A stretch of DNA of 64,000 nt. Source: Amphiscolops sp. MND2022 (taxonomy: Eukaryota). The position numbers and the translations under genes are program-made. The DNA lies in contig OZ076409.1 in NCBI GenBank assembly GCA_964187785.1, forward strand, positions 51,338,001 to 51,402,000, written 5' to 3'. The notes beneath the pieces were generated by a model that was not told the DNA's origin, did no database searches, and worked only from the letters and a program-made list of their open reading frames with translations. This document shows positions 10,670 to 64,000 of the stretch, in pieces (within the stretch, counting starts at the first letter, position 1; each line of letters begins with the position of its first letter).

Positions 10670-11094
10670 TATGAGACAAACGCATCGAGACTGAACAGTG
10701 CCTACACTGCCCGCTTAACAGGGACGTCAAGCATATACCACGTTTGACGTTTTTGAACGTCATCTTCTGGCATACCGGATTATGAGAGAACAGGCTTCAA
10801 AAATTCGAAGAAGCCAAAAATGATGTTACTGTCAAAACGGTTGCTGAAAAGGTTTGTCCCACAAACTGAAGAAAGCGGAGCAACAAAAGCGCTAGAAAAA
10901 CCGTGGAAAGGGGAAGAGCATGAGAACAACGCTTGCGAAAATACAATTGCAAGAAACCGGAAATCTAATTGGTGACTGCTAATAGTGCCAAGATGGATTG
11001 GAGAATGTTTGCGTACATTTTTCATGTTACTTTTTAATATAAAGTCTACACCTTGAGTCAAATATCGTAATTCATATGCAAGGTAAACCCCCAG

Positions 11095-17400: not shown

Positions 17401-17590
17401 AATGCAAAACTTTCTGTGCTTCGCTAATAATTACCGGACATTTATTCCTTGGCACGCCAAACAGGTGACACCTTTACATGCCAACACTGGAGTGAATGCC
17501 ACCTTCGCGTGGAGGTCTGACCAACAACAGGCCTTCAACGAGATCAAAAAAAAACGTTGATAGAGGCGACTGCTGACCAAATCAGTGCAG
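14431..17590 (+). mobile_element. Decayed Ty3/Gypsy LTR retrotransposon (gag, protease, RT, start of connection/RNase H), 3'-truncated
   Basis: Protease LRGLVDMGSGVSILT (~15650) and DFLLGRNFL; RT HKADIGRC, MPFGMCNASATVQ and AYIDV (decayed YIDD); then LRDWEIPRNK..FANNYRTFIP. Many stops are present. A possible PBS TGGTATCACAG is at 14431. The element is cut at about 17590 by a Helentron-type element. Confidence 0.85.
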
Positions 17591-18406: not shown

Positions 18407-18696
18407 AGTTTATTTATTTAGTCTGTATTTATAGTGCGCCGTGGATGTATGGCCTTTGAGTGCCGAAATTCCTAGCTCTCGGGCTGGTGCTAAAAAATTT
18501 CACGTTTTTTGTAAAAATACGAGGTTGGAAAGTAAAAACCAATAAGATCCCAGACAGCGCTACTCTAAAAGCAGATGGCAAACGAGGATTTGTCCTTGTT
18601 CAATGATGTATCGACAGCACTGGAAGCAACCCTGTTCCTAGACGTGGTCCTGCGATGCTTGCCGGGGACGACCAGCCAGAAGCCCGGGGAGTGGTC

Positions 18697-30522: not shown

Positions 30523-31189
30523 CTCAAGTCCAGACACTTCGGTCTCATTCCCAGATGCCAGTCTCAGTGCCAGTCAGTCCCAGATGTTTCAGTCCCAAAA
30601 ATACAGATATATCAATTCTAGATATTTGGCAAAGGTGAGGCTACCTGCTGTTGTGCTTTTGTTTCCTCAACCAACTGCGCTCTTTGTCTTTTACACCAAT
30701 CAAAATTTTCACAAGTTTCGCAGAATTTGCTTTGCACGGTTGAAATTCTAAAATTCTAAAAAAATTTCTGTCTTCACAGCTTAGAAGCATTTGAACAAAA
30801 AATCTTGAGAAATTCTCAAAAGCTGTTTGTTCCTTCGTCGTTCAACTTTTGGTCATTCTAACCACTGACGCTTTCAAAAGTTTTTTTAAAAAAGCAAATA
30901 TACTGCCAAAATCTGGAAAAGAAAAGCATATTGGTCCATTGATGCTCTTTTTCGGCCATCTTGTTGGTATTCTTTCTTGAAAAAAGATCAAATATCTCCA
31001 CAGATACAAATGTCGGGAACGTTTTTCGCGATTGATTTTTTTTGGAAAAACCATCATTATTTGGGTTTTAAAATAGCAGGAATCGGAATAAAAATTAAGG
31101 GTAATGAAAAATATAATGTGGGTGAAAAATGTTCCTACACCAAATGATTTTGAACCAACAACTTATTCGTTTTTAACATCATTGAAACA

Positions 31190-34100
31190 TTGAAAACAAT
31201 AGCAAACAGACAATCTACTATTTGGCAACCATTTATCGCTCAAGGTCTTTTCACGACTTTGAACTGAGTACCTTCCTGATTGGAAATTACAGTAAAACGG
31301 ATAAAGAAGGTGAAGTAGAAGAAAATTTCTTATGGTGCATCAGCCCAAAAGCTTTATACCAAACGACACAGGCAGAATATCAAACCGAGCCAGATAAAAT
31401 ACCAATCAGAGCTTTGATCTGAGTTATCAATGAATTTTTCTTACCGAAAAGAAAACATATTAAACCTGGGGCAAATTCTGCTGAACAAGCTGAAAAGACC
31501 GGACGACTTTTGGCCAAAATTGATAGGAATCACAAAAGAAAGCAACTTTTGAAGCACAACAGTCGAAGAAGTGCTAATTTCAGAATTCATGACAGCAATC
31601 ACAGACAAGAAACTCCGAGGCGATATTGAAGAAAGATAAAAATCCGAAAAGAGATGAAGATCACAATCGAATTGAGCAAACAAATTACGTATCAAAACAA
31701 ACACAACAAAAACAAAAAAAAACAAGTATAAACTGGGAGAAAAAACCTATACAAAAAACAGACCGATTCATAGCAAGACCGAAAAGTAAATTCAGCAACA
31801 GCAGACAATGCAAACTCTGCAATGCACCGACATGTAACCCAAAACAGAATTGCCCTGCACTAGACAAATCATGCAACATTTTGGGACAGAAGGGTTGTTT
31901 CGCAATTACATGCAGAGAAAATCAAAAGATAGAAAATACCCGAAAATGGAAATACAGCAATTGGAGGAGAAACTGACCAATCAGAGTTGAATTATTCTAG
32001 AATCAATAGCAAGCATAGTTGACCTGAACAAATACTCGACAACAACAGTGGAAATGAACGGGACGGAGGAAGAGTTTATTATAGAAACCGGATCACCATT
32101 CTCTATTATTGCCGACAGATAGCAAAATGAAGGAAAAAACCGAAATACAAAAAATCAAATACCGATTTGAGTATGTAAACAAAATGAGGAGAAAGACGAA
32201 TGGAAAATAACGGCAGTTACTGAACATGAAAAACAAAACAAAACATGCAGGTATTAATAACCAAAGAGACGATACCACAACTCGTTCGCAATGGACTCGC
32301 CAGAGAAATCACACTTACATTAGGAAACATCCAATCGGACAAAAGCAACCAGTCAGAGAAGAGATGAATGATCAATCAAGATCCGGATCTCAAAAACAAC
32401 ACCATCATAGAAAATGCCGAGATGTACATACATTTTACACAGGGTCAATATTCGGTAAATTAAAATCAAAACCAACAATCCTACATCTACAGGAGCCAGT
32501 CGGAGAAACGTAAAAGAAAACTTTGTGCGAAATCCGACGACTTGGAAAGAGTGGAACACGTGGACGAAGATTGTAGTGTTTCCCGCGTGGTGATAACTGT
32601 AAGGAGTTATAAAGTGGTGAAAATTGCTTTCGATTCACGGAAATTGAATGACAGATGCACACAAGTCCGCCCACACTGGCCGAATAGAGAAAAAAAGCCC
32701 TTTCAAAATTCGGTGGAATTAACGAAAGACCGGACAAAAGAACTGATGGTATCGAATATATCGAAGAACTANNNNNNNNNNNNNNNNNNNNNNNNNNNNN
32801 NNNNNNNNNNNNNNNNNNNNNNNNNNNNNNNNNNNNNNNNNNNNNNNNNNNNNNNNNNNNNNNNNNNNNNNNNNNNNNNNNNNNNNNNNNNNNNNNNNNN
32901 NNNNNNNNNNNNNNNNNNNNNNNNNNNNNNNNNNNNNNNNNNNNNNNNNNNNNNNNNNNNNNNNNNNNNNNTTATCAGACGAACGACGCCGATGGTGCGT
33001 ACCCGCTATAGAACAGAAGAAACTGTAGCGGACACTACCGATTTGAATAATGGTCTGACGGGCTTACGGGTTTGGTGATACTCCCTCAATGTTCCTGAAG
33101 AAAATTGTTCGAATGCTAGTCCTTTTTACGCGCGAAGGGTTAGACGGCATTGTAGGGATTACACGAAGAGTAATGAAAGAACATGAAACAATCCTGTTTG
33201 ATGTGCTAGAAAAACCTAAAAAGCTGGATACCGTGCAAGTGGAAGAAAATACGAGTTCGTCCCAAACAAAACAAAGTGGCTGCGGCACGACAAATACAAA
33301 TAGTGACAAAATAGAACGAAGAAAAACAGCAAGCTATTTTGAATTGGAAACACCGAGAAAACCAGGAACAACTGATATCACATCTCGGGGAAATGCGATA
33401 TCTAGCAAAACTTCCGGAACAGACCGTTAATCAACGGAGAATATTAAAGAAGAACACAGAATGGAAATAGGAAGAAGAACAATAAAACACAAAACAACAA
33501 TAAAGAATTTGTTGACCGGAGAACCAGGCCTGGAACATTGATTGGGCAGAAGATGAAAACAACATCGTAACAATCGATGCAAGCGAAATTGGTCTCAAGA
33601 TAAATCTATCGTAGAACTATTCAGAGGGAAAATTAAAACCAATAGCATTTGGAGGCAAGAATGTTAAACGACAATGAAAAAAATATATGTAATAATTGGG
33701 ATATCAACAGTTGTTTGGGGATCGCAAAATACTTCGATTTCATCAATATGGAAAAAAGTATTCATATCACCGACCACTAAGTTTTAGAACCTTTGAATTG
33801 AAGGAACAGATGAAACAAGCATTTTAGTGCTAGGTTAATCAGATAGTTAGATCGGTTAGCAGACCGAGGTGTTACAATACACCACATAGGCCGTAGCAAT
33901 AAAGAATTCACAGATGGCCAGGCGAAGCTCCAAACGAAATGCAGAATCAGAAGATGAACCGGAATAATTTGAATAGGTCAAACAATACACCAAAGAACCG
34001 AAGCAGAGGGTAAGGTGGTCCGAGGGAATGTAGAAAGTCTAAAGTAGTCACTTACTGTATTTTGATCACTACGAGTAAAACCAAATCACACACTGTAACG

Positions 34101-36387
34101 AGCGAAACACGTAACACGTATTTACACTACTAACGTGTTTTTATTGGCTGTTAGTCGAACTAGAAAAATCTTGCTAATTCGTTGCGGCATACGAATCGTA
34201 ATGTTTTTATTGTTAACTTGAAAATTACAGCACGGGCGACAAGGAGGCTCATTACGTCCAAATCAAATGAATGATCGAAGCTATAACTGAAGAGAAAGAA
34301 TTCATGGAGGATGCAAAGGAAAAAGCAAGCATTTAGGCGTGTGATGTTAGCAAGAACCGCAATGATCGCAGCACAACGTTTATAAACGGCAACAATCATA
34401 GTCACAATCGAACTCCGGGAGAAATATGTAAATACGCTACATTTCGGTCTGGCGTCCGCAGCAGAACTCTTCTGGTGGCCAAGCATCAAAAAATACTTAG
34501 AAGAAGCTGTGTGAAGAAGAATACTTAGTGAAGAGCTGTGTAGCCTGTGTTGCATCGAATAATCTAATACAAAAATTATTATCTGAAAATCAAAAAACCT
34601 TTAACGAAGCGAAATAAAAAATCCAAATCCTTCATTGGGATATTTCACAACAAAAAATCAAACAGTGAGAGCCAAATATTAAAAGCAATGGAACGTTTCC
34701 GCGAGTAGCCACCCGTGAAATAATGTAAAAACTCTTGAACAAAAAAACTGAACTTCATAACGCTAAACTTTGTTTAGGGAATTCCGAGGAAAATCAAATC
34801 GGATGGAGACAGACGTTTCAATTTGAACGATAATGTTGAATTCTACGAATCAAAATGAATTGAAACTGCACGTGGAGAGTACATAGAGGCACGAGAGTAG
34901 TTGAAAGATCAATACAGACAATTGAGAACCTTAAACACCTAACTTTGGAGATACATTATGCCTGACCGAACAACATGTTAACAGAGCATTAAATGTAATG
35001 TTATTTAAAACTCACACGGGAGTAAAGTTAACATATTCGAGGTACTCCGCGGTAGAAAACGGAGAACCGAACTGACCATTCTATTAAGACATGGCAAATC
35101 GTACTTTTCAGATTGGTCCGAACTGTCTTTTCAAGCGGAGAAAAAGCGTGACACGAGGCGGAGAATATGAAGCCACAAAATAATTAGTAAGGGCAAAAAC
35201 CAACGCCGAAGTAAGAACGGTGGAGAAACAACCGAAAAACTTCGTTTGGTAAATACCTTTACATGTTTGCAGAGAAAAATTACAATAAAAAATCATGAGA
35301 AAGAAAAGAACATTGATGAGAATTATATAAAAAATACAAACCGCGGTAGGGGGAACAAACATACTGTGATTACCGAAAATTGAAAACTGATTCATTGAAA
35401 ACATATTTCAGCACCGGTTGTTTTTCAGAGCGAAAGGAAGAAGGCAATGCAATTGGGCGACAAAATAACACCGGCTAATCGGAGCTGCCTTCGTGATGTG
35501 GACGGACAGAACATTCAGGGGAACAAAAAACTAAGTGGCATCAAGAATGGCGTATTGAAAATCATCTGAAACCGCACCCTGAAACCAGAGTCTGAGTCCG
35601 AAAGTGAAGAAGGGGAATGAGAAGTGCAACAAGAGGGCGAGATGTACAACACGGATAAATCTCAAAGATGCGCTGAATTTTAATACAGACGATAGAATAC
35701 AAACCGGTGAGAACGAAAATAAAAATATAAAAACCTAAGAAATAAAAACAGAAAGTTTATCTGATAGAAGACCAAGCCGAGAATTTAAAAAAGTGAGAAG
35801 ATTCGGTTGAGTACCATTCACAGAAAACTTTGAATGAATTACCAGTAAGCATTTCAGAATTGAATTGAGTGAAATCTACAGAGACTATTGGATTTTTAAG
35901 CAGAGAAACACCAGATGCCAGAACCCTCCGAAGCCAGAGGAGTCCCAAGAGTGGGGAACGTTATACGGTGTAATACGTTGTCCGAAATCATTCGTTTCAG
36001 CCAATCCAAACAGAAACTAAAAACGATTCCTGAAACTGAAAACTAAAATTCTGAAAAATAGTAAAGAAGATTCCATTTATGTTGATACATATTTAAAAAC
36101 AGCATGTGCATTAGATTAGTTTTGTACGGAACCATTGCTGATACTTTTCTTTTTTGATAAAGTTGGTACAGTGAAAATCCTAAACTAATTGTGATGTTTA
36201 TGTAACAAAGCTGAATTAGAACAACTGAACAACTGGACACTTAATGTTTTAGTAACAGCAGTCTTCCTTTATAATATTTCACGGAAGATTCATTTGAATT
36301 GATATTTTTGTCGCATTTTTACCGAGAATTGAAGTGTCGAAAAAAACCTCAATGCGAAAAAGAAGCTATCTCAGCTTCTGTGTCGAA
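31190..36387 (+). mobile_element. Heavily decayed Ty3/Gypsy retrotransposon spanning the assembly gap
   Basis: Remnants include the gag knuckle CKLCNAPTCNPKQNCPALDKSCNILGQKGCFAITC, protease-like FIIETGSP (~32080), RT-like VVITV..VKIAFDSRKLN, RNase H-like IVTIDASEIG, PIAFG and ITDH, and integrase-like traces at about 34600-35100. Confidence 0.75.
32772..32971. other. Assembly gap (200 N)
   Basis: Run of exactly 200 N; the true length is unknown. Confidence 1.
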
Positions 36388-42300: not shown

Positions 42301-45300
42301 GAGCCTATATATATTTTAATTTAGGAAAAATTTTCGGAAAATGTTCAAAATTTGGAGTATGAGGTCGACAAACCAGATACTTTGGAAATTATAACTCCTT
42401 TGTCCTCAAGTTCGAGGAACCTTATACCGTTTTCTTTCACAAGTAGCATTTTGAATAGTCTATTGTTTCAACATGAGGTCAACGGAAGTCCTCTGCAACA
42501 AAAAGTTTTTGAACTGAACATAAAATGTCACGAAGTTATCAAAAAACGAGGTTTTTGTTATTTTCTGTCGGCGCCTCTTCCTTTAAGGAAAAAAGCCCGA
42601 CTATTACAGTGGCTAGTTTTTTTTTCTTTTTTTTCGTCAGACCACAGAGCTCTTCGCGTATGTACCACTTTTTACAGAATTTGATGAGACTACTCAAGCC
42701 AAGTCAGGCCAATGGAAACTTAGTGCAACGGGTCCCCCTTTCATTTTTTACCTTTTTTACGTAACCTACAAAACCGGAAGAGACCAAAGGGCCACCCCTT
42801 GCAATTTTTTTTCGGCACTGTGCGAAATTTTTTTCGAAAATTTTTTAAGGTCCTAACCCTTTTCATTTTTCGGCACTATGCGACAATTTCGAAGTTTTTT
42901 TCAAAAAAATTTTTTTTAAAAATCTCAAATTTTGTTCCCAGTTGGGAAACAGTGATTTTCCCGTCATATCAAGCATGAAAGGCACACTTTGGGTGTCTCA
43001 AAAGTGTTTTCAAAGCTTTTCATGAATACGTCCTGATCATATTTAGAAACCTTTGCGCTTCTTGAGCTTTAGATATAGCGCCGACTTTAGATGTTCCCGT
43101 CTTGTTTGGATTTGAGGTACTTTGAAGGCCAATTTTATCTGAGATTTGAATTTATACTTTCAAAAACGATAACTAATATCGGGCTTAGTCGTTGTTGAGT
43201 ATCGTTCTACTAATATGTTCCACCAAATTGCTGTTAAATTATACAACAAGAAGCCCGCTAAGCACCGGTATATTTTCCGCTGAAAATGTAACGCTTCAGT
43301 CCGGGTTCAGCCATGGCGCTTTTTTAGTTACTTGAATATTATATTGTTACTAGCAAAATAGTCAAGTAACGAAGTGGAGTGGAGATAAAGTGGAGTTTTG
43401 GCAAAATGTGTTTTAAAAAACGCGTCACAGATCATGATTTTCCTCCCCCATTTATGTGGGCGGAAAATAACAAGCTGCAAAAACGCTAAATTTTCACAAA
43501 ATTGATTTTTTAAAATCTTTGGGTCATTTTGAGGTATTTTTCTTCCTTGAGAACTGCAAACTTCTCTTTTAAGAACGATCTTTTCGAAGCTATTAACGTA
43601 CCAACGTTTATTAATTTTGAAAAAAATCACTAAATTTATACCTTAGACCAATTTCGGTCATTTTGAGGCCATTTTTGATGTTACAAGAAACTGCCCAAAG
43701 AGCCCACTTGATACTGCGTTTTTTTTATCGCTGAATGCTTCGAATTTCTAAACATAAGTTTAGATTTTTCAGCTTTTCATCCATTTGGAATTATGGCTTT
43801 TCATCAGGGTCACTTTTTCGTCATTTTGGAGGCTTTCGGGTCAACAGAAAAGTCTAAAAATCTCGACAAATACATATCGCATGAAAATAAGTTTACGTCA
43901 GTTGAATTATTCGGGTGAAACCATTTAACTGTGATATAAATTTGGAACATGGCAAATTTTGAAATAAAAACGCGGCTGATTTATATCGACACGTTTCCTG
44001 GAAAAAATGAGATACAAAAGTGAAACACTGGTGGGTGTTAAACCCCACACTCACACTCTTCCTTGTAAACAACTCGAATACAAGATCTAATAAAATTCGA
44101 AAATTGGGTAATTAAATAGAAATAGCGCATTTTCAATCGAAATTGGCATTATTTCAGAAAATGGTACTCTTATAGTTCAATTTGAAAAGAGACAGAAGTT
44201 CGACACTAATTGAAAAACTATTTGTAAGAAAATGTGCTCAAAGCCAACAAAACAAAAAAAAACATTCCAGGTTGAAAAAAATCTTTTAATAGCTGAAAAA
44301 TCAATGAAATCGAAAGACACACTTCAGTGAAATGGATTGCTCTTCTTAAAAGTCGCACTGCGCCGAATTTATGTAAAGAGGGGACAATCATTGATTTGAT
44401 CAAATGATTTGAAAACGCCTAATGGCAACATGCGAATTATGAACAAAACGAAGGAGAGACTCCCCGGGGAAAAGAAATAAACTCCTCACAGTGCGAAATA
44501 AAACTTTAGGTCTCCTGCAGTTTTTCAAACTAATTAAAATGTATGAGAGTCAAAAAAAGCACACCTGCATGCACTTTTGATACTAGGCAAACTCTGAAAT
44601 TGGTCCAGAGTCTTCTCGAAAAAAAGCTGCACAGCACTTACAAAATACAACGCCAAATCGCGATAGATTGCCCGCGGAGCATCCCATTTCTGGCCTCAAA
44701 GACCATATGAGCGTGCCTAGAAGATCTTTTTCATGAATTTTAATCCAATTTTAATTTCATTTTTTTTGTAAATGACTAGATTTCTACAAATTCAATGAAG
44801 ATTTAATCAAGCCTAGGTTTAGCCCTTACAAGGACCAAACCTCGATATAATTTATTCTTTGACTCTTTTGATGTTTCTCTCTCTGTATAGAATAAAGTTG
44901 TCAATTCATTCCAGGCACGTTAGTTAAACAGATGACCTTGGGAAGGAGGAGTGTCGCCATAGAAACAGGTGTCGACCACGTCATAGATGTTGAGATAGGG
45001 TGAGTAGATGGCGTTCAGAGCAGATGCCAGTTGGGCCTGACAGTTGTACGACTGACCACTCTGGAAGTCACACTGGATCTCAGAGTCTGGAACAAAGACA
45101 GTCAACAAAAGATTGCATAAATTTCATGGAAATTCATGTGCTCCCAGGTTCACCATCATGGCTTATGCTCAGCTTTTCATCATCCATGGCATCATGACTT
45201 TTCATCCATGATCATTCATGAATCATGGATGTTTTTCAAGAATCCAATCAAAAGTAATGAAAATACGTCCAAGAGTCTAAGTTTAGTAACTGCATATCAG

Positions 45301-48300
45301 AACCTTTATTTCGATATCGGAACCTCAATCCAATAGAAATCTAAGTTATCATTGGACTTTTTTTGCATGATGAAAACTCAATTCTCAACGGGAAATTTTC
45401 AAGGGAACAGAACTCAAACAAAATTATAGAATTCAGATCTAAAATGCTTCTAATCTATCCTTCTTTACGTCATTATAGAGGCTTATCGTTAGTTTCACTT
45501 TAGTAGCCGAAGAATCGTTTTTCGAAGAAAATCAAACGAGTTGTGATTTCTATTCGAGGTCGCTTACCAGGACAATTGCAAGAAGAGAGGAGGCCTTCAT
45601 AGAGGTCAATAGAGATGATTCCATGATTGTAACCGAAAGTGACAAGCGAATTCGTATTGTTTGCGTAACTCAGAAGTCCATTACCTACGGCGAAACCTGG
45701 AACAGAAGCATCACCAGTTTGCATCAAACACTAATGTTTCTGTTTTTTTGGAAGATTGATTTTAGTTGCAGTGATGTAATATGTAATACGAATTATATTC
45801 AACTATCCCCAACCTTTCACAATGTTTCATTTTAATGAGTGAATTGAAGAGTTAAAAACAAAGTTAAAAATGCAACGTATGAAAACGTTGTAACCTTTCA
45901 GCATAGATTGTAGAGGCGAATATGATTCGTATATTCTCAGAGTAAGGGTAGGTACATAAACACCACCGTAGCTTTCGCCTGTGATGTACAAGTCTCGGCC
46001 TTGGTACTCAGGGAACTTTTCCAGGAAATGATTCAAAGCGATGTAGTTCTGCAATGAAGCGCCATCGTCAGATACAGTGCAAGTTCCATCGTGGGCATAC
46101 GAGTATCCCACACAAGCAGGTGATTCTGAAAGCACGTAGAATAATGTTGGTGAAAGTGGAACTTTGAAAGAAATTTCTAATCTGGAAGTTGAAATATATG
46201 GAGGAAAAAACTAGAAGGATACCGCTGGGCATCTTTGTTTTTTTTTTGCTATACGCTTTAATGACGTCACAAAGCTGTAAAAAAATTGAAAAAATGTAGG
46301 CACGGTTCAATAAGCCAAGAGATGAAAGACATGAAAGCATTTTCTTCAAAATCAATAGATGTGATGTTTTTATTGAATGATATGGGTTGTTGCACTGAAG
46401 AAATCAACTGCGAGGAAGTGTCAGTTATTGACGTTTACCTTTGTATGATTGAGCGGATCAGTATAACAATGCATGTGGTTTCATTTCAACATTGTGCTCC
46501 TATTTCAGATATAAAACAGATACTCATTTCAACCGATAACTCCGTTTTTAGTCAGCGCATTTTATCAAAATGAGCCCGACTATTACAGTGGCAAGTTTTT
46601 TTCTTTTTTTCTTCGTCAGACCACAGAATGTATGCGTAGTGGACACTTTTTACAGAACTACTAAAGTACTGAATCTGCAAACGGGGAGCGCATTTAAGAT
46701 AGTTCAAAGGGTCCCCCCTTTCAGTTACTCCATTTTCATCGTAAGATACAAAACCGGACGAGACTATAGGGTCCCCCCTTTGAGTTTTTTCTGCACCCTG
46801 CGACTTTTTTTCGAAATTTTTTTTTGTCTCCAAAGGGTCCCCCCTTCAAATTTTTTGATATTTTACAGCAAACTGAAGTTCCAGAAAGCCCAAAGGGTCT
46901 CCCCTTTTAGGTTTTTCGGCACTATGAGACTGGCTCAAAATTCTTATTCTTCGATTTTTCGTTTTTTTTTCGAAAATTTTTTAATGTCTGAAAAGGGTCA
47001 CTTCAATTTTTAAAAATATTTTGCAACATAATAGATATTTAAAAATCCCAAAGGGTCCCCTCTTTTAGATTTTTCGGCACTAAGAGACTGTTCAAAATTG
47101 TCATTTTTCGTCTGAAATTAGGTTTTCTCACTATATATCTCCCAATAATTTTTTCCAAAACTATCCGAAACTTGGACGTAATATCCTGAGTAAAGTGCTA
47201 TATCCGAATTTTTGACGTTATATCCAAATTATATTCCGTTTCACTGAGGAGGAGGAGGCGGAGGTTCGAAAAGCGTTCCCATTTGTCCCAGTACGCTATA
47301 TCCGAAGTTTGAGATGTTACACCCCGCAACAAATTGGATTTTCAAAGAACCCAAATGGTTCCCCCTTTAACAATTTCAAAAAGTTTGAGTTTTTTGAGCT
47401 TTAGATATGGCGCCGACTTTAGACGTTCCCGTCTTGTTAGAAGTTCAATTGGGAAATAGTTCAATTCTGGCAAATATGGTTATGCTTCCATGAATGAAAT
47501 TGTAGTCAAAGTGTTACTTTGTGTTTTGATTGGATAACGAGATCTTATTCAGTAGAAATCAAATTTTTGTTCAGTTTTTTGACCCACTTGGACCTAGCTT
47601 CGAGTTTTTGACTGATGTTTGAAATCGAGTGTTTTGATATAATGCGGGGAGCGGGGACAGAAGTCAAGGACTCTTATACTGGTGGTGAAACGGTCAATAA
47701 TTGGAATGCTCCTGCATCTTATACTTCAATTTGAGCTACCTGAAAAACAAGAACCAAACAAACCCAAATAGATCATATTCGTCATCAAATTCCAAGCGTA
47801 CGGGTTCCGAATGAGATTGTCCCCACTTCCATCCACTAACAGAGGTCCATGCTCGTACAGCATACCATCCATGGAACTGCATCCAGGTCCCCCATTGAGC
47901 CAGAGCACCAATGGGTCACTCTGAGGGTCATTCTGGCTCTCCACAAACCAATAGTGCAGCTGAATGTTTCCATCAGTTGATCCATTGAGGTATCCAGAGT
48001 ACTGGTTGTAGTTAAGTTGACCCGAGAAACCCGGCAGGCTTGTAATTTGGTCCGGATGTCCAGCCTCACATTTGTCTGAAAATGGATTTGAGTCATATTT
48101 TGAGTTGAAAATATTTGTTCATCTCAAGTGGTCTAATCTCGAAATTTTTTGACGTCATAAAATGCATAAAAGTGTTTTCAAAATCTCGTATTGTAGCGAC
48201 AATTAGATTTGTCCAATGAACAGAATACTAGCAGGAAGTCAACATTTTTACTGGAAAATGCAATTCACTGCTTTTTCTGTGCTGAAATGTATTAAAAAAT

Positions 48301-48416
48301 CATTGATTGACAAAATTTTCTTTCGTTTACTTGTTTGAAAAATGTAGCAAGCAGTTCGACTTACATAAGCAGGACAAAAAAACCACCAAAGGTATTAAAG
48401 CTGGGATGATCTTCAT
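39364..48416 (-). CDS. CTSA-like: Serine carboxypeptidase S10 (cathepsin A-like), paralog 2, 8 exons, 474 aa
   Basis: Exons are 48416-48365, 48075-47764, 46125-45895, 45696-45568, 45086-44937, 41122-40850, 40296-40181 and 39525-39364; all are GT-AG with the same phases as paralog 1 (1425 nt). The signal peptide is [17 protein letters not shown]. Motifs: [32 protein letters not shown]. Confidence 0.93.
42561..43106 (+). mobile_element. Helentron-type non-autonomous element (intron 5 of paralog 2)
   Basis: 5' end TTTTCTGTCGGCGCC...CCCGACTA; 3' end AGCGCCGACTTTAGATGTTCCCGTCTTGTT. Confidence 0.7.
46545..47438 (+). mobile_element. Helentron-type non-autonomous element (intron 2 of paralog 2)
   Basis: 5' end TTTTTAGTCAGCGC...CCCGACTA, internal AAGGGTCCCC subrepeats, 3' end GGCGCCGACTTTAGACGTTCCCGTCTTGTT. 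Confidence 0.72.
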
Positions 48417-49913
48417 AAATACGCTAGTTGAATATCAGCAGCCGCTCAAGAATTTTAGTTTTGAGGTATTACTTTTATCAGTGAGGTCCCGTTTTCCTTA
48501 TTTAAAACTAAACATTCATATCTATCGATTTGTTAAGTTGTTGGAATGCTTTGAGATCAATCAAACATTATGTACAAACACTTGTAAGCCTACCTTATGT
48601 TTTGTGCAAGAAATTTGTTTCTAGAGCGAGGTCATTGCAATCTTTGAAAGTTTCGTACTTTATCAGTACTTTAAAGAACATTCAGCATCTGATGGTATTC
48701 TTGAGTTCAACTTTGAAGGTGTCCTGAAGAAATTTGAAGCACAATGTTTGCTTTTCAATGTCCAATTCCAATCTTTGGAGGGAAATTCTATGCGATAAGA
48801 GCTGAAGATTGTAAGAAATGTTCCAATGAGGGCGAGGACAACCTTCTTCCAAGCTATTATTCTCAAGCGAAGCTGAAGAAGTTTCGGGTACAAAAACATT
48901 TTTTAAAATGAACTGTTTCTTGCATGACCCATGTTCATATGAATCTAAGATTTCAAAAACCTCAATAAAAACTGAACTACGATGAAACTCACAGAAAACT
49001 TTAACCAGAGAATCTTCTATTTTGAGCTACTGCTTCTTCATTGTGAGAACCGTCAGAAGCTTCTCTTTGCAAACAAAGAGTTTTACGAGATTTATATTGT
49101 TTCTAAAAGGTTTCGTTGAGCTTTGCTTATAAAAAGACCGACGTATTAACATTTGGCCAGTTTTGATATGTCAGAGCACAACTTTCCTCGAGCTCCCCTT
49201 CTTAAATTGTTTTTCCCAATTGGGGATAACGCATATCCGGGATGTGCAAGGAATGACAAAATGTGACAGTTTAACATTCCCGAAGATTTTAACGGCTTGC
49301 CGAGTCTTTCTCTAGTAATGGAATTTTATTTTGCTTGCATTTGTCATGAAATTGACTATTCCACAGCGAGAGCTGCTTTTCTTCTGATATTTGTTTTATA
49401 TATAGTTTTAAAGGAGACTACAAACTCAAACTCCTCGTTTTGTCTTTGGTTGGGCTCCGTGCACCATTTTCCTTTAGAAACCACGGTGTTTTTCATGTTC
49501 AGTATAACAATGTTTAGGACAAAATTTTGTTTGTTCATTAAATATGCACAATGCTGCCATGCCCTTCAGTGCATAACAAAACTGTTGCAGAGTTTCGTTG
49601 TTATGCTGTTTCGTCGAAAAAAAGTCAAATTCTGTCCGGTGTCTTGTTTCCCTTTTTCAATATAATTGTTTTTTTTGCGAACTGACAGAAGGTCTTTGAC
49701 TTTCGCCTCCGCAAATTTCACCCAGTGTAAAATATCTTGAAACTCTTGCCAAGAATCTTGCATATTCTTGAAACCCTTGGTAAGAATCTTGGCAAGATTC
49801 TTACCAAGAGCGCCAAGAATATGTACGATCTTGCAAGATCTTGTCAAGAACTTCAAGAAAAATGCCAATTTGTTTAGACCAAAAAAAACCCTAAAAAAGT
49901 GATTTTAGTACAA

Positions 49914-50443
49914 AACAAGACGGGAACGTCCCAAGTCGGCGCCATATCTTGGGCTCAAAAATATTCAAGGAACAACTATTGGAAAAATTTGGAAAAAAAA
50001 ATTTTTTTTCAAAAAAAATTTTGATTTTTTTTCGAAAAAAGTATTTTTTAGGTCGCACAATGCCGAAAAACTCAAAAAGAGGCCATTCAGGCTCATTCAA
50101 CGTTTTCTACAAACCGAAAACTTCAAAAAAATTCAAGGGGGTACCCTTTGATAAATTTCGAAAGTTTTCGAAAAAAGTCGCATAGTGCCGAAAAAAAACC
50201 CAAAGGGGGGACCCTTTGGTCTCACCTGTACTTTTGGAAGCATTAAAAAAATTTATGGTTTAGTGCGGGATTCGAACCCACGCTCTCCGGCTGGGTCGAA
50301 GATAGAAGATGAACAAATATGAAAGATGAACAAAAATTGTAAGAAAAGTGGACCACTCAGAGTGAGATTGTCAACTGAAAAAAAAACTACTCACTGTAAG
50401 AGTCGGGCTTTTTTCCTTAAGGGAAAAGGCGCCGACTAAAAAA
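49914..50443 (-). mobile_element. Helentron-type non-autonomous element nested in the CMC-like MITE
   Basis: Left end AACAAGACGGGAACGTCCCAAGTCGGCGCC; right end AGTCGGG...GGCGCCGACTAAAAAA. Confidence 0.75.
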
Positions 50444-50704
50444 CACTCAGGAAAAACCAAGAAGTACCAAGAATCTTGTCAAGAAATCCAAGAAAATCCA
50501 AGAATCTTGCCAAGAAATCCGGGAAAACCCAAGAGTAAGCGGGAAAATGTCAGAGATTATTGGATGATAATGAATGAAATTGCATGAAAAGGTCTTAAAT
50601 TTCATTTATTTTGGTAAAAGTAATGCTGTTAAGCACCACTTCAATAGAGAATTGGCGAGCTGAATTTAGTTTACTGAATTAGTATACAACAGTTCCACGT
50701 CTAT

Positions 50705-51090
50705 AAAAAATAGTGATTTTTAGACGTTATTTCTAAAAAAAGTGATTTAGGACGTTATTCCTGAAAAAATGATTTCAGACGTTATTCTACCAGAATACGG
50801 ATATTTTAAACGTCATTCCAGTAAAATACAGTGTTATTAGATCTTATTCTACCAAAATACAGTGATTGTAGCCGTTATTCCACAAAAATAGTGATTTTTA
50901 GACGTTATTTCACAAAAATAACGATTTTGGACGTTATTCCTGAAAAAAGTGTTTTCAGACGTTTTTCTACCAGAATACGGTCATTTTAATCGTTATTCCA
51001 GTAAAATACAGTGATTTCAGACGTTATTCTACCAGAATACCGTCATTTTAAACGTTATTCCAGTAAAATAGTGCTTTTAGACCTTTTTCT
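50705..51090. repeat. Minisatellite, ~28-31-bp unit, about 13 copies
   Basis: Repeated unit AAAATA(C)AGTGATTTTAGACGTTATTC. Confidence 0.85.
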
Positions 51091-56446: not shown

Positions 56447-57124
56447 TTAGTGATGTGGGATACTTGGGTTTCGAGCCCAACTAAAACAATAAATTTCATG
56501 ATTCAATGTTGTGGAAAACCAAAGGGTCCAACTGTCGTAAGCACAAGTATCTGAGGTTGTGAATCCGTCTCTCTCACGATTACCTAGTGTCTTACTCTTC
56601 AAATTGTTTCTAGAGTCTGAATTACGCAGAACTTCAGAATATCCTTCCGGTCTCTCAGACGGAACGTTCCATCTCTCTCTGGTCATATGTCCGGACTCGG
56701 CCATAAGGGCATTTTGAATCTGAGGAAGAACTTGATTACTAATTGCTTCACTTATAGCTCTTTGAATCTGCACACTGACGCTGTTCATCATCTCATCCAT
56801 CTCCCGAGATATACGGGAATTCAACTCACTCGACAATCTGTTGATCTCGGCGTTAGAACTACCTCTAGCTGAGTTCTGGCCTAGTTCGGCATGTGGACTA
56901 GGTCCATCGTTCTCAGAGTTAGATAACCTATTTCCACCCTCATTTCCAAATTCGTCGCTAAACGGACTACCAGGTCTTCTGGCCTGGTTGCTATTTAGGC
57001 TCTCACTTCTTTCATTTCTATTATAATGGTTTCCTCCAAGCATTATGTCTAAATTCTCAATATCTGACAACATTTCTGCCTCTCTTGATTTTCTCGCTTT
57101 CTTTTGTTTCCTTGTGGTAGGCAT
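56447..57124 (-). CDS. Element-encoded protein N-terminus (basic N-term plus coiled coil; possibly gag leader), running out of the element at 56533
   Basis: This ATG-initiated 225-aa ORF begins MPTTRKQKKARKSR and has the helical segment EINRLSSELNSRISREMDEMMNSVSVQIQRAISEAISNQVLPQIQNAL. The last ~28 aa after CAYD come from flanking DNA. Confidence 0.55.
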   Translation of the reverse strand: MPTTRKQKKARKSREAEMLSDIENLDIMLGGNHYNRNERSESLNSNQARRPGSPFSDEFGNEGGNRLSNSENDGPSPHAELGQNSARGSSNAEINRLSSELNSRISREMDEMMNSVSVQIQRAISEAISNQVLPQIQNALMAESGHMTRERWNVPSERPEGYSEVLRNSDSRNNLKSKTLGNRERDGFTTSDTCAYDSWTLWFSTTLNHEIYCFSWARNPSIPHH

Positions 57125-58287
57125 TGAAACTAAACCGGGTTGAACAATTCAATTATTAAAACCGGAAAACTGACAAACGTCGTTGTAAAATCAATCTTTA
57201 TCAAAGCAAGGTTATGAAAAAAGTGTCTCCCTTTGCAGGAAAGTGACTATATATACTCCTGAAAGATGACACTTGCATTCCACGGATTCTTTGATCAAGA
57301 TAATATCATGTGGTTATGTCCTCAACAGGTCATGTGACAAATACCATTACTGCATCGGGTATTAATACTTCAAAGCAACTATTTTAGGGTGATGTCCCGA
57401 TTGGGAAAATTCCTAACATTTTACAATCACAACTATTCATTCATCAAAGGCGGCGTCAAAATATTTACTAGCGCATCAAATGAAATTTCCGTCTATCAAA
57501 GGAACTCGTACTCATCATGAATATAAATAACATTGCATACATTCCTTTCTGGCACGTGCCACCACGTGATCTAAATTAGCTTTGCAGCAGTGTGAAGCAC
57601 CTCATGTTATTAGGCCCAATACGGCCAATTGACATGTTAATGGTTATATGCGTTGATTAACCGATTAGCCCCAAATACATGTACTGCATCACTTTTCAAA
57701 GGAACGTAACAATTCCAATGGCCGGGAATAGCCGGCTAATTAATGGGCAAGTACTAATGAAATATGGCCTTAAGGGCATAGCAAAAGGTTGGGTATTAAA
57801 ATGAAGCATCAGTTAAGAACAAAGATCTGGCTATTATGAAAACACAAACTCAACAAACATGATTTGTTACATGTCAAATTATCACCTTATTTCAATCTTG
57901 AACTAATGGGACGGAACCGGCCATTTGACCAGTGTACCAAAAGAGAATATTAAAAGCGCGGCAACTGGCCTTACTCGGCCATTAATTAAATAGCATCAAC
58001 AAACGAGATTGCATACTGCGATATGATTGGTTAAGGTAACGTGCTCAAGTGACGCTGCCGGTACATTGCCGTACGTCACTTGAACTCGTTTCCTATACTG
58101 CCTTACAGTCGCTTGTTTCATTGTATTTTCTATCACTTTAAATTAGCGCCTTACAACTCCATCAACTCGATTGAAATTTCCAATTGTTAGATTTAACAGA
58201 CTAATTGTATATAAAATGAGTGTCATCACTGATCATAATGCACAAAATAACAAAATGGCGTGAAAGTTTGATATCAATTGTAAGTTC

Positions 58288-59070
58288 TTAATAAATAGGT
58301 AAGGTTCCGGGTACATATTCTTGACCAACTGCCGAAGTAGTTACCGTCGTGCCGTCACAGGCGGCAGCCTGCGACACTGCGGGTGTTATGAAAAGGAAGC
58401 ATCCCGCATTAAGCCCATTCTCGTAGGCCTCTTTCCTCAACTTCGTGATGTGCTCGGGCTCGTTCCTTGGGGTGGATCGTTCCATATACCATCTGACTCT
58501 CTCACTCTTGATTGCGTCTACAGAGCGGCCGCAAACCATACACCCAGTATATTGGGTCTCGCTGACGTTTTGGTAGGGCACCGAGTTCTGCACGTGATAA
58601 GACACATGAAAATCACTTACTGCGGGCTGGACCAGAGGAGTGTCCTGGCTTGGCCCCCTCTCATGGATTGGTGGAGACATCGGTGATTCTAGCACTGGCA
58701 GCAGCGTCTTGCAGAGCTCAATTCGCGATTTCTCCGCTCTTTTTGACGGGGCATAGCACCTTTCGTGATCAAATTATTTTGTGTCTAACTTGGGAGTCAC
58801 ATCTTGCCCCGGCTGCCTGGTGCTTGGTCCTGCGACCATTTCTTCCTCCATACTGCTAGTCGTCATGACACGTCCGGCAATTAGAATGGGGCTGGACACT
58901 ACCTGCTTCTCCACCCTTCTGATCATTTCGTCCGTGTCCGTCGACCAGTCTGAGTCCAAATCAACTGAGGTTTCCTCATCGCTGCTTATGTAAATGACTG
59001 AATCGCCTGATGAGTCTGAGTCCAGTTCAGCCATCTCGAAGAGCTTTCCAGATTTTGCGTATTTATCCAT
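58288..59070 (-). pseudogene. About 260-codon ORF (acidic SIM-like N-terminus, CxxC C-terminus) interrupted by one in-frame TAA at 58774-58776
   Basis: The track ORFs 58774-59118 and 58288-58695 are in the same frame, and the 78 nt between them are open (FDHERCYAPSKRAEKSRIELCKTLLP). The ATG is at 59070 and a TATA-like TTTATAAA lies at about 59140. Confidence 0.6.
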
Positions 59071-59252
59071 GATGAATTTTTTAGCTATTTTGAAGTTTCT
59101 GAAGGCAACTAGCTGCAAGTGAGATTCAAAGTTGAATGAATTTATAAAACTCTCCTCAGGCCGACTCGGGCCGTTTTCCCGGGGTTTCGTTTCAGCGGCA
59201 AAATCTTTGGTTAATCGGTCTGATCCATCGTAAACTTTCCTGAATGGAGTTT
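58739..59252 (+). repeat. Near-identical direct repeat, copy 1 (copy 2 at 63487-64000+)
   Basis: The offset is 4748 bp; I found only one mismatch by eye over 514 bp. Confidence 0.95.
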
Positions 59253-59978
59253 CTCAGCGGCGGTTCGCCCTTTGAATATCGGAACGCTGCCCCCCGAGCC
59301 CACCCTCTCAAGTAGGTAATAAGAGAGGTGTTAAGTTGACAACAACAAATAATACCGCTTTCAAGTGGGTAATCAATATCGAGCTTGATAGTAATTAACG
59401 GCATGCGTCAGGCGAAGTCTACCAAATGGCATCAGCCAATCAAATTTGAGCTTCGATAAATTTGAAAAACGAATAATAAAGATGGCGAAAAATAATAATT
59501 TGAATAACTAAAATGACGAAAATGATAAATCAAAATAATTTAAAATGGCGGAAATAGCAATTTGAGTAACTATAATAACGGAAGTCCCAATTAGGATAAC
59601 AAACGAAATGGAACAAGATGATAAACTGAAATAGGCTAAACGGCCGTAATCGGCCAATAATTCCATAAGTTGTAAATAATGAAGTAATCTTTGTACATTT
59701 CGCTGGCAGACTCCATGTACAGAATAAATATGTAAATAATCCCGTAATATTAGTCTGGTAATTCCTTCAGCCACGAACTCCAACTTTCTCTCTTTTAATT
59801 GTTACATTATTTGATTCACCTACTATTTACTCCTTACTCTTTCCATTATTCTCCTTTGTCTACGACCCTAGTTTTGCATTTATTGGGCTCACTCGTAATT
59901 CCATTGCCAGCATCACCTCCACGCAGGTCCCCGATTTCTTCTTCTTCTTTTGTCCGAATCCAGCTGTTCAATCCAATC

Positions 59979-62900
59979 ATGTCGGACCGACAAGGACTTT
60001 CCCCGGAAGAGCAAAGACTTCAGTGCCAAGAGATCGCTAACACAGGTTGGTTTGAGTAATCATATTTTGAACTAATTAACGTGATCAAGGTTAACTTTGT
60101 TCATAAACTGCTTCCTGTTTCCATCAAAAGACACGTGATAACACGTCTATTTAAAATTTCAAACACTTCCGGAAGATTTCTAAAGCGGTCAAAATGGACT
60201 TTTTCCAAGGAAGCACACCGCCAAATTTCATTTCTTTCTGTTTAGTTGGCCAGAATGAAGATGAGCCACAAACTTCTTCCAACACTGTTCCGGATCTCTC
60301 TGTTGCACTAATTCAAGAGGTTAGCCCGCCTTCTAATGCTGATCCAGTTCGGCCCCCTGTTCCTTCTCCTCCACCTTTTCCGCCACTGGTTCCTACAACT
60401 TCCCGGAATCAAACTGGGGAAATGACTCCCCTTTATAGTCCCGACAGTAACACAGATGTTACTTCTTATGCCGATGAGATGGTCCAACGGCTAGAGGATG
60501 CACATGCTAGGCGCATAGCTGAAGCAGACGTCACGATCGATACAGCTCTCAATACGGCCCTCAACTCGCAAGTTCCGGAGAGTAATTTGAATCCCCTCCT
60601 CCCAAGGTCAAGTACTCCAACTCTTGATGCTGAAACAGCTGGGCTGTCCGCCAACCTGTCGCAACTCGAGACTGCTCTTGGCGTTGTCATCGGTACACAG
60701 TCTGACTTGCCGATTCTCGTTCCAGTTCCTTTACAAACAGAATTGCGGGAGCGAAGTGATGGGGATAACGCGTCCTCCACTTGTGACTTTCCTGGGCTGC
60801 CCAAAGATAATCCAAAGGTCCACTTCTTGACCGATGACCCTACTGAGAGTGAGAAGACTGGTGACGACACAAGTCATGTAGAAGAACCAGCCCTCTACAG
60901 CTCTGTCCCTTTTGGATCTGAATCCGGAACTGAAGCCGGGGATGAGTCAGGACCAGGACATGACACTGTGGGACCTGGTATGCCTTCCAGCTCTCGGGGA
61001 CCTGATGACCACCTTCCAGAACTAACCGGTCGAAGCCGAGCCATCTTGAAGACATACTTTGCTGACACCAAGCCATTTAACCTACCGCTAGGACACCCCA
61101 CTGTGGCTTTTACTGAGGCCCAGATGTATCATTTGCTACGAGTCCTGAGTGATGAAACTCTTCGAATGTCCTACTCTACCATGGAGAAGATGGTCGTCGA
61201 TGCCGTCAGAGGTAAACCTACTGTTGCACCCTCTAAGACGTCCCACTTCCTCATCAGGAACAGAGCACAGACTCCAGGCAGATGGGATCAGAACGACCAG
61301 AGCTCTTCAGAAGCTGAGTACGACTCGAGCGCGGACTCCAGGGCCTTAACTCCTACCAGTGCAGGAGATACAGGAGATTCTTCCTTCGAAGGGGAATCGG
61401 ACAGTGCCACTGAAATGGCTTTGATTTCAGCTACCTTGGGAGGCGAATCCCAACTTGTTCGATCTTCTCAAGAAAAGGACAGATTTGCTGCCACATGTAC
61501 CACAGGTGGTGATGAGACCACAGGCCCCAGTAGTCAGGAAACTACACTTCTAGAGCTCCAACAGCAAGCCCGAGGGACAAAGGCGAAAGGTTCTTCTGGG
61601 CGCAAACTCTCCACTAAACCAAGAAAACTTGCCAGTCGAGGGGTCCCAATGCGGGAAGAATTTTTCGCCAAGATCGGGTGGACCCGATCTTTCATCTCTG
61701 GACCCGCTGATCCGGTACACAATCCACATATGGTCTGGTGCCATATGTGCAAAAAGAACTTTTCAATTCGGTCCAAGGGCGCTTTCGAAATTTTACGCCA
61801 CCATCGTACAGAGAGACACCTGCGACGAGACCAACGTTGGAGGTACGAACACCTCAAGAGTGTGGACCCATCCAGTGGGAAGATACGGCATCGGGTCCGA
61901 GGTCGGAATGGGAAAGTACTGACCGCAATCGAGCTGGCCAAAGAATTGCCGAAGTTCATTCACACTGAACTTGTAGACGTAGGAGAGAGATTTCCCTTCT
62001 ACGACGATTTCATGCAAGGGCGACCTACTGCCTTAGTCACCTCTGAGTCGCGGGCAAAACTACAGCTGTCCATCATAGAAGACTTCCTACAGACCCAAGG
62101 CGACTTCTCGCTGCTGAAGAGTCTGTGGTCGAGAATCAGTGCCCACACCGACTACCAGGCTAACTTGTGCGATTTCGATTGGTCAGAAGAGCGTATTACG
62201 GTGGGTTCTTTTCTGTAAGTTGACCAATCGCTTTTGCGTTATCGACCAAGTTACTAAATGTACTTGTCCATTTCAGGCCATCTTCCAACACTTCTTTAAC
62301 TGCGCTATGAACCACTTGGCAGAACAGATTACGGCTGAGCAGTGCTTTGCCATAGAGTTCGAGGACAGGGGCCCTAACCGGTACATGACAGCACGATACT
62401 GGGAGGGCCAAAATCTTCACCGGGTCCTCATCTGCAGGAGCCAACTACCAGCTACTGACCTGACCGGGGAACTGGGATCATTGTCCCGACTGTTGTCTGT
62501 CGTTTCCACCAAGGCTGACATAGTGGCGTGCTCCGGAAGCTCTGTCGATCTTCTTCGCACAATTGATTATTCTCCCCTCTTCTCCCGCGCTGTGCAGAGT
62601 TGTTTCCGGTTTGACCAATTGGATCTACCCAAGATGATGCATAAGACCAGTTACAGTGTCTTTGGCCACATAGATTTTTTCTCAGTCCTACGTGGTCTGG
62701 TTATCTCTCTTGGTGGAGCGCATTCCGAAGACTGGTACCAACGCAGTCCAGAGCTAGCCCAGGTAAATAACGTTCACCTTCCTAGTGTTGTAATCGTGAT
62801 CAATCAGGTGTTAACTGGGGGGGGGGAGGAGCGAATTCCCCTAGTTGTTCGAGTTTAAGTTGTGATTTCCTTCCCAGGCCATATCCAGCTGCAAATTGGA

Positions 62901-63222
62901 GCTCTCCACTTTACCGACCCTTTGCCAGGAACTGATCGAGGAGTGGAAGCCGATAACAAGCTACTTGACGACGCACGTGCCAAAGCAACAAGGTCAAGGA
63001 GTCCGTACTCGGGTAAGTAACCAGATCCTTACAGCCTTTAAATATATGCTGATTAGGAGTTGCTTGAGGTATATAGAAGGATGAGTCCCCATTTCCGTTC
63101 AGTGTCTATTGTACTAATACAGGGCCTTATTACAGGTGCAAAGTTTTGAGTGGGGGCTAATTTGTGACGAATTTATTCTTGTCAAGCTGGAACTCTTCTG
63201 CCGGATCGTCAGTGACTGTTAG
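59979..63222 (+). CDS. 5-exon gene, about 909 aa: disordered N-terminus, BED/C2H2-type zinc finger, putative degenerate hAT-transposase-like C-terminal domain
   Basis: Exons are 59979-60045, 60246-62200, 62277-62762, 62878-63012 and 63136-63222. All introns are GT-AG and join five reading segments in frame (2730 nt, TAG stop). The zinc finger is VWCHMCKKNFSIRSKGAFEILRHHRTERH. Confidence 0.8.
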
Positions 63223-63486
63223 TGTACCTTTATTATCTTTAGACAGGTTTTCTACTCTAAACTGCATCAATTCCTTTCCTTAGATAACACTAGCTTCATT
63301 GTCAACACTCATCATAGACGAGACGCCTCATTCTTCCTCTGTGGGGAGGTTTCCAAATTCGTCTACCAGCTGTGCTTCAGATGTTTCACTAGCGACTCGG
63401 TTCCTTTGCCAAGTGCCTGGTTTCTCCTCCTGGGATTCCAAGTGGGTGACGGAACCCTCATGACTGCTGGAGAATTCCTTGTCCGG

Positions 63487-64000
63487 CTTTTTGACGGGGC
63501 ATAGCACCTTTCGTGATCAAATTATTTTGTGTCTAACTTGGGAGTCACATCTTGCCCCGGCTGCCTGGTGCTTGGTCCTGCGACCATTTCTTCCTCCATA
63601 CTGCTAGTCGTCATGACACGTCCGGCAATTAGAATGGGGCTGGACACTACCTGCTTCTCCACCCTTCTGATCATTTCGTCCGTGTCCGTCGACCAGTCTG
63701 AGTCCAAATCAACTGAGGTTTCCTCATCGCTGCTTATGTAAATGACTGAATCGCCTGATGAGTCTGAGTCCAGTTCAGCCATCTCGAAGAGCTTTCCAGA
63801 TTTTGCGTATTTATCCATGATGAATTTTTTAGCTATTTTGAAGTTTCTGAAGGCAACTAGCTGCAAGTGAGATTCAAAGTTGAATGAATTTATAAAACTC
63901 TCCTCAGGCCGACTCGGGCCGTTTTCCCGGGGTTTCGTTTCAGCGGCAAAATCTTTGGTTATTCGGTCTGATCCATCGTAAACTTTCCTGAATGGAGTTT
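63487..64000 (+). repeat. Near-identical direct repeat, copy 2, including a second copy of the SIM-like ORF N-terminus (63522-63818, minus strand)
   Basis: The 114-aa translation is identical to 58774-59118. The repeat runs off the window end. Confidence 0.95.

Follow-up and report, generated by a model that had tools for sequence, protein, structure and literature searches.

Antisense extra open reading frames (ORFs) have been described in Ty3/Gypsy long terminal repeat (LTR) retrotransposons of plants (gene23 of Grande, RIRE2, and TRP28 of Retand), and the available part of one account calls both their origin and their function unknown (PMC7264820). According to the accessible text of two sources, they lie antisense between pol and the 3' LTR, occur in most copies, and are predicted to encode nuclear DNA-binding proteins of unknown function (PMC7264820, PMC11963269). 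brtn of Boty/BcGypsy1 in Botrytis cinerea (Zhao et al. 2011) is, in the excerpt available, likewise an antisense extra gene of a Gypsy element (PMC8365987). A gene of this kind was analyzed here in a 64,000-nucleotide stretch of Amphiscolops sp. MND2022 (assembly GCA_964187785.1, contig OZ076409.1, positions 51,338,001 to 51,402,000 of the forward strand). The whole stretch is called the window; positions marked "extended" continue its numbering into the next 30 kb. The gene starts at position 59979 and is carried by a Ty3/Gypsy element on the minus strand, and its predicted structure makes it very probably of hAT origin. Like the genes of the Grande, Retand, and Boty type, it is antisense, is placed between pol and the 3' LTR, occurs family-wide, and is under selection.

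As in the original prediction, translation from the ATG at 59979 across four GT-AG introns (60046-60245, 62201-62276, 62763-62877, and 63013-63135) gives an open frame of 909 aa in five segments with its end at 63222, and introns 2 to 4 are conserved across loci. The predicted end did not stand: the stop at 63220-63222 lies within a fifth GT-AG intron (63218-63283), which was GT..AG in 23/23 loci. Splicing out intron 5 adds a last exon of 386 codons and gives a gene of six exons and five introns with a predicted protein of 1,295 aa, which is free of stops in the whole copy. The window's own copy, which had been called intact, is cut 68 codons into exon 6 by the junction of a 4,748-bp tandem duplication and would end at 981 aa; the second copy of the gene (G000:C1:51402727-51407194, extended 64727-69194) is complete. 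The parts of the gene are as follows.

Exon 1: 59979-60045, plus strand; 22 codons plus 1 nt (5 codons plus 1 nt in most relatives)
Intron 1: 60046-60245, plus strand; 3' half conserved as DNA, with the palindrome CTTCCGGAAG at 60166 and an in-frame ATG at 60194
Exon 2: 60246-62200, plus strand; acidic Ser/Pro-rich region, conserved island, zinc finger, and helical region
Conserved 60-aa island, aa 283 to 343: 61025-61207, plus strand; within the low-complexity region
BED-type finger, by pattern: 61679-61819, plus strand; W501, C521, C524, H541, and H547 invariant
Intron 2: 62201-62276, plus strand; splice sites conserved
Exon 3: 62277-62762, plus strand; first half of the predicted RNase H-like core
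Intron 3: 62763-62877, plus strand; exactly absent in locus L136
Exon 4: 62878-63012, plus strand; putative start of the insertion domain, without an RW motif
Intron 4: 63013-63135, plus strand; exactly absent in L090, L142, and L144
Exon 5: 63136-63217, plus strand
Intron 5: 63218-63283, plus strand; exactly absent in L136 and L150
Exon 6, first 68 codons: 63284-63486, plus strand; the whole exon (386 codons) lies in the second unit of the duplication

Splice sites were kept where synonymous sites are saturated. Across 23 loci, 89 of the 92 homologous sites of introns 2 to 5 were GT..AG, with one exact absence and two sites off. In 12 distant loci, where exon 6 is merely 30 to 37% alike, 39/48 sites were exact, five were exact absences, one was shifted, and three were not found. 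The introns were about 60 to 1,024 nt long. The exact absences, placed on the gene tree, require four or more events (two for intron 4 and one each for introns 3 and 5). They confirm three junctions without RNA, and they suggest that spliced mRNA of the gene was reverse transcribed and recombined back. All five introns read CT..AC on the sense strand of the element, so packaged RNA would keep them.

The acceptor of intron 1 was kept in nearly all of 34 blocks (from 35 loci) and its donor in most. The usual first exon among relatives has 5 codons (phase 1), and the in-frame ATG at 60194, 52 nt before the acceptor, is also conserved; two starts are therefore possible for the protein. Protein-only conservation of this intronic ORF start was rejected because conservation extends to third positions (0.74, compared with 0.56 in the finger). 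The block at 60165-60245, with the palindrome, a GCGG..CCGC pair, and the ATG, is kept across lineages with saturated synonymous sites. In 18/18 elements scanned, the palindrome occurs once per gene copy and nowhere else in the element; it could be a site for the gene's own protein or for a host ETS-type factor.

The carrier was followed through the window and the next 30 kb.

3' LTR of the Gypsy element: 56533-58376, minus strand; 1,844 bp, TG..CA ends
Small sense ORF: 58288-59067, minus strand; about 260 codons, acidic N terminus, C-x2-C, runs into the 3' LTR
Tandem duplication, first unit: 58739-63486, unstranded; 4,748 bp, three differences between units
AT-rich spacer between the divergent genes: 59068-59978, unstranded; 31-bp repeats at 59471-59580
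Tandem duplication, second unit: 63487-64000 and on to extended 68234, unstranded; overlaps the start of the whole gene copy
5' LTR of the Gypsy element: extended 75759-77602, beyond the window, minus strand; 1,844 bp

The two LTRs differ at 1 of 1,844 sites and are flanked by a 5-bp target site duplication (TSD), which was also called in 8/10 other copies. The gene thus does lie antisense inside a young mobile element, as had been proposed; the insertion is young but damaged. Beyond the whole gene copy, pol and then gag follow on the minus strand. gag has 573 codons and starts inside the 5' LTR, and pol contains Pfam RVT_1, RT_RNaseH, and rve in Gypsy order, with no chromodomain match on the integrase; the zinc knuckle of gag (zf-CCHC) was below the Pfam cutoff, and the protease was visible solely as a DTG motif. 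The gag start lies about 590 nt before the LTR end (56533-57125, minus strand; extended 75759-76350), which places the primer-binding site within the gag frame and a gag fragment in each 3' LTR. The primer-binding site is a TGG-starting tract immediately after the 5' LTR. No clear polypurine run was found before the 3' LTR, a junction spanned by the small ORF, and no env-like ORF was seen in this element.

Between pol and the 3' LTR sit the antisense gene, which is tail-to-tail with pol at a distance of 234 bp, and the small sense ORF. The spacer between these two is a putative divergent promoter, and its 31-bp repeats carry what we take to be YY1-like motifs. The small ORF is conserved clade-wide under purifying selection and had no Pfam match above the cutoff. 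In the window's copy, one in-frame stop interrupts the reverse transcriptase (RT) and another the small ORF; neither is found in 13/13 other copies, where the place of the small-ORF stop is open. Programmed readthrough in pol or the small ORF was rejected, as both stops are private to this copy. The 4,748-bp duplication is also private (absent from 8/8 close copies), and its reading as an LTR pair was rejected, since it is an internal duplication of the element.

Genome searches, which covered the 1.07-Gb assembly, found the gene to be multicopy and linked to both RT and integrase, in agreement with a retroelement gene; a single-copy host gene was rejected on this ground. The finger region gave 7,735 first-look candidates, of which 150 were scored (75 to 100% alike). 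A tight intron-1 pattern gave 2,026 matches, compared with 0 for the reversed control, and this number is a lower bound (the window's own copy does not fit the pattern). Forty-six loci picked to span the gene types were fetched (30 close or middle, 10 distant, and 6 further). Thirty-nine are Gypsy elements with the same layout, and seven belong to a CMC-type DNA transposon family; Gypsy carriers accounted for 30/30 of the close or middle, 8/10 of the distant, and 1/6 of the further loci. The shared layout spans Gypsy elements with gag and pol 47 to 78% alike, and the antisense gene stands beside the small ORF in 39/39 Gypsy loci. A profile search returned 643 clusters, and the ten checked were ENA only. 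One of the clusters (P0263) had no match above 41% in this genome, so the gene family is likely present in another organism.

For close pairs, the ratio of nonsynonymous to synonymous substitution rates (dN/dS) was 0.011 to 0.165 in 29/31 exon-pair comparisons, and the remaining two both involve a prematurely terminated copy and few changes. The low-complexity region gave 0.10 to 0.25 in 6/7 pairs, the seventh being saturated. By these ratios, the gene is under purifying selection in the Gypsy copies, as expected for a gene that, according to the original prediction, is kept by its element.

Three variants were recorded among the copies. Two Gypsy copies (L132-L133 and L140-L141) have lost most of pol and retain the accessory gene region and both LTRs. 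A distant copy (L162-L163, G000:C6:51131058-51151057) carries a separate internal tandem duplication that spans its small ORF and exon 2. An amiloride-sensitive sodium-channel ORF adjoins one gene copy and makes an animal host probable.

The N-terminal part of the protein is rich in Ser, Thr, Pro, and acidic residues, as had been stated for a disordered region of about 480 aa. It is not low complexity throughout, since the 60-aa island is conserved in 38/38 copies. The W..C-x2-C..H..H finger and the peptide quoted with it in the original prediction are both present. Of 35 copies modeled, 21 are open over 760 aa, and the W, C-x2-C, and H-x5-H of the finger are invariant in all 21. The finger region is the best-conserved part of the protein; zf-BED gave no Pfam match for the finger, which is called by its pattern. 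A run of at least four basic residues was found in 14/21 open copies.

Exons 3 and 6 were folded separately, and the structural matches come from these two models. The exon 3 model (predicted local distance difference test score [pLDDT], 54) consists of a helix followed by three strands, a second helix, and a final strand. In Foldseek, Hermes transposase chains took ranks 1 to 4 (best E value, 0.024; probability, 0.60). VIA aligned residues 1 to 90 with Hermes 153 to 265 (Z, 3.8; root mean square deviation [rmsd], 2.8; 80 residues) at rank 7, below ribosomal proteins and an integrase. The exon 6 model (pLDDT, 67) was aligned by VIA with Hermes 378 to 599 over 152 residues (Z, 5.7; rmsd, 7.2; rank 4 of 48,161), the longest alignment among those listed by VIA. 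Folded apart, the two exons align with Hermes in gene order, behind a BED-type finger. The predicted core is RNase H-like and is split by a helical insertion domain. Atlas neighbors were mostly hAT-related families (scores of ≤0.90) and are treated as leads.

No inverted repeats of ≥40 nt were found around the gene (shorter, decayed terminal inverted repeats [TIRs] were not sought), and similarity between gene copies continues as far as the ends of the Gypsy LTRs. An independent hAT element was rejected on these two grounds; the flanking hAT TIRs with an 8-bp TSD that the original prediction had named as the contrary case were not seen, the gene having no TIRs of its own. Neither long proteins matching exon 6 nor, in the host genome, a likely donor hAT was found, and PF14291 matched nowhere, controls included. 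Rfam gave no match. The host has long open hAT transposase ORFs with canonical motifs (L124-L128; 597 to 697 codons), none of them close to the captured gene.

In Hermes, according to the available parts of two papers, the DDE triad consists of D180, D248, and E572 (PMC2533014), and the active site also has H268 of CxxH and W319 (PMC4763223). In the 21 open copies, the position of the first Asp holds E, Q, or A, and that of the second holds no acidic residue. None of the 21 has a conserved Asp in strands 1 or 4 or a conserved last Glu, and CxxH, RW, and E-x-x-FS are absent at the homologous places in all 21; the single ERAFS match lies in the protein tail. In the control, TRW was present in 7/7 host hATs. 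Six acidic residues are invariant in the core, with E701 in strand 1. On the basis of these models and motifs, the protein is likely a catalytically dead hAT-derived transposase. The central claim of the original prediction, that a large retroelement retains a dead gene of hAT origin in antisense orientation, agrees with folds that match Hermes in order, absent motifs, and purifying selection.

Between gene types, synonymous sites are saturated, compared with a pol dS of 0.05 to 1.4, and the gene types are therefore older than the pol lineages that carry them. Gene types were also swapped between near-identical pol backgrounds (pol dS of 0.05, with exon 3 just 62% alike). Deep groups agree between the gene tree and the integrase tree, and 10/17 supported gene splits conflict with the small-ORF tree. 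These agreements and conflicts indicate that the gene is inherited along with the clade, within which it is exchanged as a cassette.

The seven loci in the DNA transposon family contain the whole gene, and none of them has a gag, a pol, the small ORF, or an LTR. Five of them are 98 to 99.8% alike over about 20 kb and lie on four chromosomes.

CMC/EnSpm-type DNA transposon: G000:C2, about 29298731-29334035 (L167, L164, L146, and L147); 35.3 kb

This transposon has 45-nt inverted ends with a 2-bp TSD (both ends were followed in 1/7 loci), a 654-codon Transposase_21-type ORF (DUF1258, E value of 4e-9; Transposase_21 and DUF4218 below the cutoff), two SET-like ORFs (below the cutoff), and 88-bp arrays. 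The five young copies are accompanied by a related subfamily (L148 and L160-L161). In the DNA transposon copies, exon 6 is followed by what is left of the Gypsy integrase tail, and the genes of these copies nest beside a Gypsy-borne copy on the tree (support, 0.93 to 1.0), which gives the direction of transfer as Gypsy to DNA transposon. The backbones of the two subfamilies are 90 to 96% alike and their genes 75% alike (protein) with saturated dS, which suggests that the gene was captured twice. At the tail of the Gypsy pol lies a stretch with about 70% similarity to the 88-bp unit. Given the swaps between pol backgrounds and the presence of the whole gene in a DNA transposon that has neither gag and pol nor an LTR, the gene is not tied to Gag or integrase.

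Because the finger is the best-conserved part, the acidic region is under selection, and no matching integrase, Gag, or small ORF is needed, we infer a DNA-binding regulator. The reading that we favor with moderate confidence is that a dead hAT transposase was domesticated by a Gypsy clade as a nuclear DNA-binding activator or anti-silencing factor for its carrier. A hAT element would have inserted antisense behind pol in a Gypsy ancestor and then lost its ends and active site, with the coding exons retained. The introns would persist because the packaged sense RNA reads CT..AC and is unspliceable, and the precise loss of introns in four or more lineages would be the trace of spliced mRNA that was reverse transcribed and then recombined with the element. 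The BED-type finger may bind a site common to the clade, for which the intron-1 palindrome and the divergent promoter are candidates. The dead core might act as an oligomer scaffold, and the acidic region and its conserved island could recruit host transcription or chromatin factors. Only tentatively do we extend this proposal to a portable animal anti-silencing factor, made from a dead hAT transposase and domesticated by Gypsy elements, that exists in about 2,000 copies as swappable ancient types and was passed on, probably twice, to a giant DNA transposon also carrying SET-like genes.

Several observations weigh against the domestication reading. Each structural match is weak alone, given the pLDDT of 54 and 67; Foldseek returned no hAT row for the exon 6 model; Pfam and a PDB sequence search gave no match to any known family for the exons; and hhalign comparisons of single exons and of the complete core with the 7 host hATs gave nothing. 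The hAT affinity originally predicted for the C-terminal part thus stands, weakly, in structure and not in sequence profiles. The catalytic positions were set by motif alignment, without residue-level superposition. The sequence does not discriminate between activation and repression. The intron-1 palindrome is altered in the DNA transposon copies, and it also fits what we presume to be a host ETS-type site. Two DNA transposon copies (designated B) differ from each other by 16 nonsynonymous and 10 synonymous changes, and selection after capture is not evident. Finally, unlike in VANC systems, the gene type does not travel with the small-ORF/LTR type, although the comparison of the gene and small-ORF trees is an indirect test of VANC-like codiversification in which the small ORF and LTR stand in for the target.

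The same origin could have the opposite sign, with the protein, the antisense RNA, or both restraining the element by self-repression or by control of its copy number. In some retroviruses, sense transcription is modulated by antisense genes, and both the tail-to-tail arrangement with pol and a dead transposase fold would suit a repressor. The available text of one paper also discusses antisense RNA as a brake on retrotransposition (PMC7264820). We nevertheless consider self-repression unlikely, in view of about 2,000 copies with very young insertions in many subfamilies, selection at the codon level throughout the protein, which points to the protein and not to RNA alone, and capture by a second transposon, which is easier to explain by a benefit in cis. 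An adaptor for integration, whose finger would bind host DNA or chromatin and tether the Gypsy integrase or preintegration complex, or which would aid nuclear import, is quite improbable. It would fit the DNA-binding-type finger, the basic C-terminal stretch, an integrase without a chromodomain by Pfam, and the main deep groups shared by the gene and integrase trees. However, gene types swap freely among integrase backgrounds, the gene is whole in the integrase-less DNA transposon and in the pol-depleted Gypsy copies (L132 and L140), and 10 insertion flanks had no common motif when compared by eye and not by a formal test.

We find it very improbable that the protein is still an enzyme (a nuclease or recombinase) with a rebuilt active site or that its likeness to hATs is that of a shared RNase H-like fold. 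The six invariant acidic core residues, including E701 in strand 1, would suit the former, and the low structural scores would suit the latter. Against an enzyme stand the lack of a conserved acidic residue at the strand 4 and last-Glu places and the loss of CxxH and RW; against a generic fold stands the match of two separately folded pieces to Hermes in the right order. A matched selfish pair of the antisense gene and the divergent small ORF, which would favor carriers as a toxin-antidote system or by germline drive, is hardly credible, because the two, although side by side in all 39 Gypsy loci and both deep, old types under purifying selection, reassort (the 10/17 conflicting splits), and the DNA transposon copies have no small ORF.

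Other features were recorded in the window and its neighborhood. A BEL/Pao LTR retrotransposon with broken ORFs occupies 3688-10671 (337-bp LTRs, 97% alike). Long direct repeats (11095-12308 and 18697-19872; 86 to 87% alike) bound a GC-rich region (11095-19872) that contains short ORFs, is without a Pfam match, and may be an old element. A strong A-rich skew extends over 5 kb (31001-36000), with a 204-codon ORF without a Pfam match, and self-BLAST breaks over about 200 bp near 32772-32971, probably at an N gap. Inverted repeats 7.7 kb apart (42561-50442) and a 31-bp tandem array (50704-51089) are probably nonautonomous DNA transposons. Downstream of the Gypsy element lies a tandem repeat with a 4.25-kb unit (L032-L033, extended 80709-91075; 97 to 99% alike).

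Compared with described systems, the gene shares with Hermes-type hATs the order of a BED-type finger, an RNase H-like core, a helical insertion domain, and a C-terminal segment. Inactive hAT genes have been domesticated before, as in the ZBED family and DAYSLEEPER. The present gene differs from hATs and from these domesticated genes in having no DDE, CxxH, RW, or TIRs and in its 480-aa acidic N-terminal extension; unlike for the domesticated genes, its keeper would be a retrotransposon and not the host. brtn-type genes are described as encoding small cysteine-rich proteins that are not transposase derived, and their hosts are fungi. The plant antisense ORFs have no similarity to other transposons according to the part of the text available (PMC7264820), whereas the present gene maps onto a hAT transposase, is predicted to encode 1,295 aa with five introns, and resides in an apparent animal. 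Transposase_28 (PF04195), the family of Retand TRP28, had no match in any exon tested. LTR elements of bdelloid rotifers also combine an animal host with extra ORFs that move between element types (PMC5408684), and the text of that paper, in the part available, mentions neither "transposase" nor "intron." Searches of the open literature for this arrangement found no account of an LTR element with an antisense gene of hAT origin; subscription journals, Repbase, or supplements may hold one.

The gene would thus be an antisense extra gene of an LTR element with an origin traceable to a class II transposase, in which one transposon domesticated the enzyme of another and handed it on to a third. 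As a five-intron gene that travels in a retroelement, it would hold a record of its own mRNA in the exact intron losses. Its thousands of natural variants mark key residues and DNA motifs, which makes the function testable. VANC of the Arabidopsis VANDAL transposons is likewise a transposon-borne accessory protein proposed, in the text available, to act on its own element (PMC10398659). According to the same excerpt, each VANC has matching targets, which are rapidly diverging tandem repeats, whereas here gene types reassort with small-ORF/LTR types. The present protein is set beside VANC by its proposed role and not by homology; if it counters silencing, it would be an animal counterpart of the plant VANC factors.

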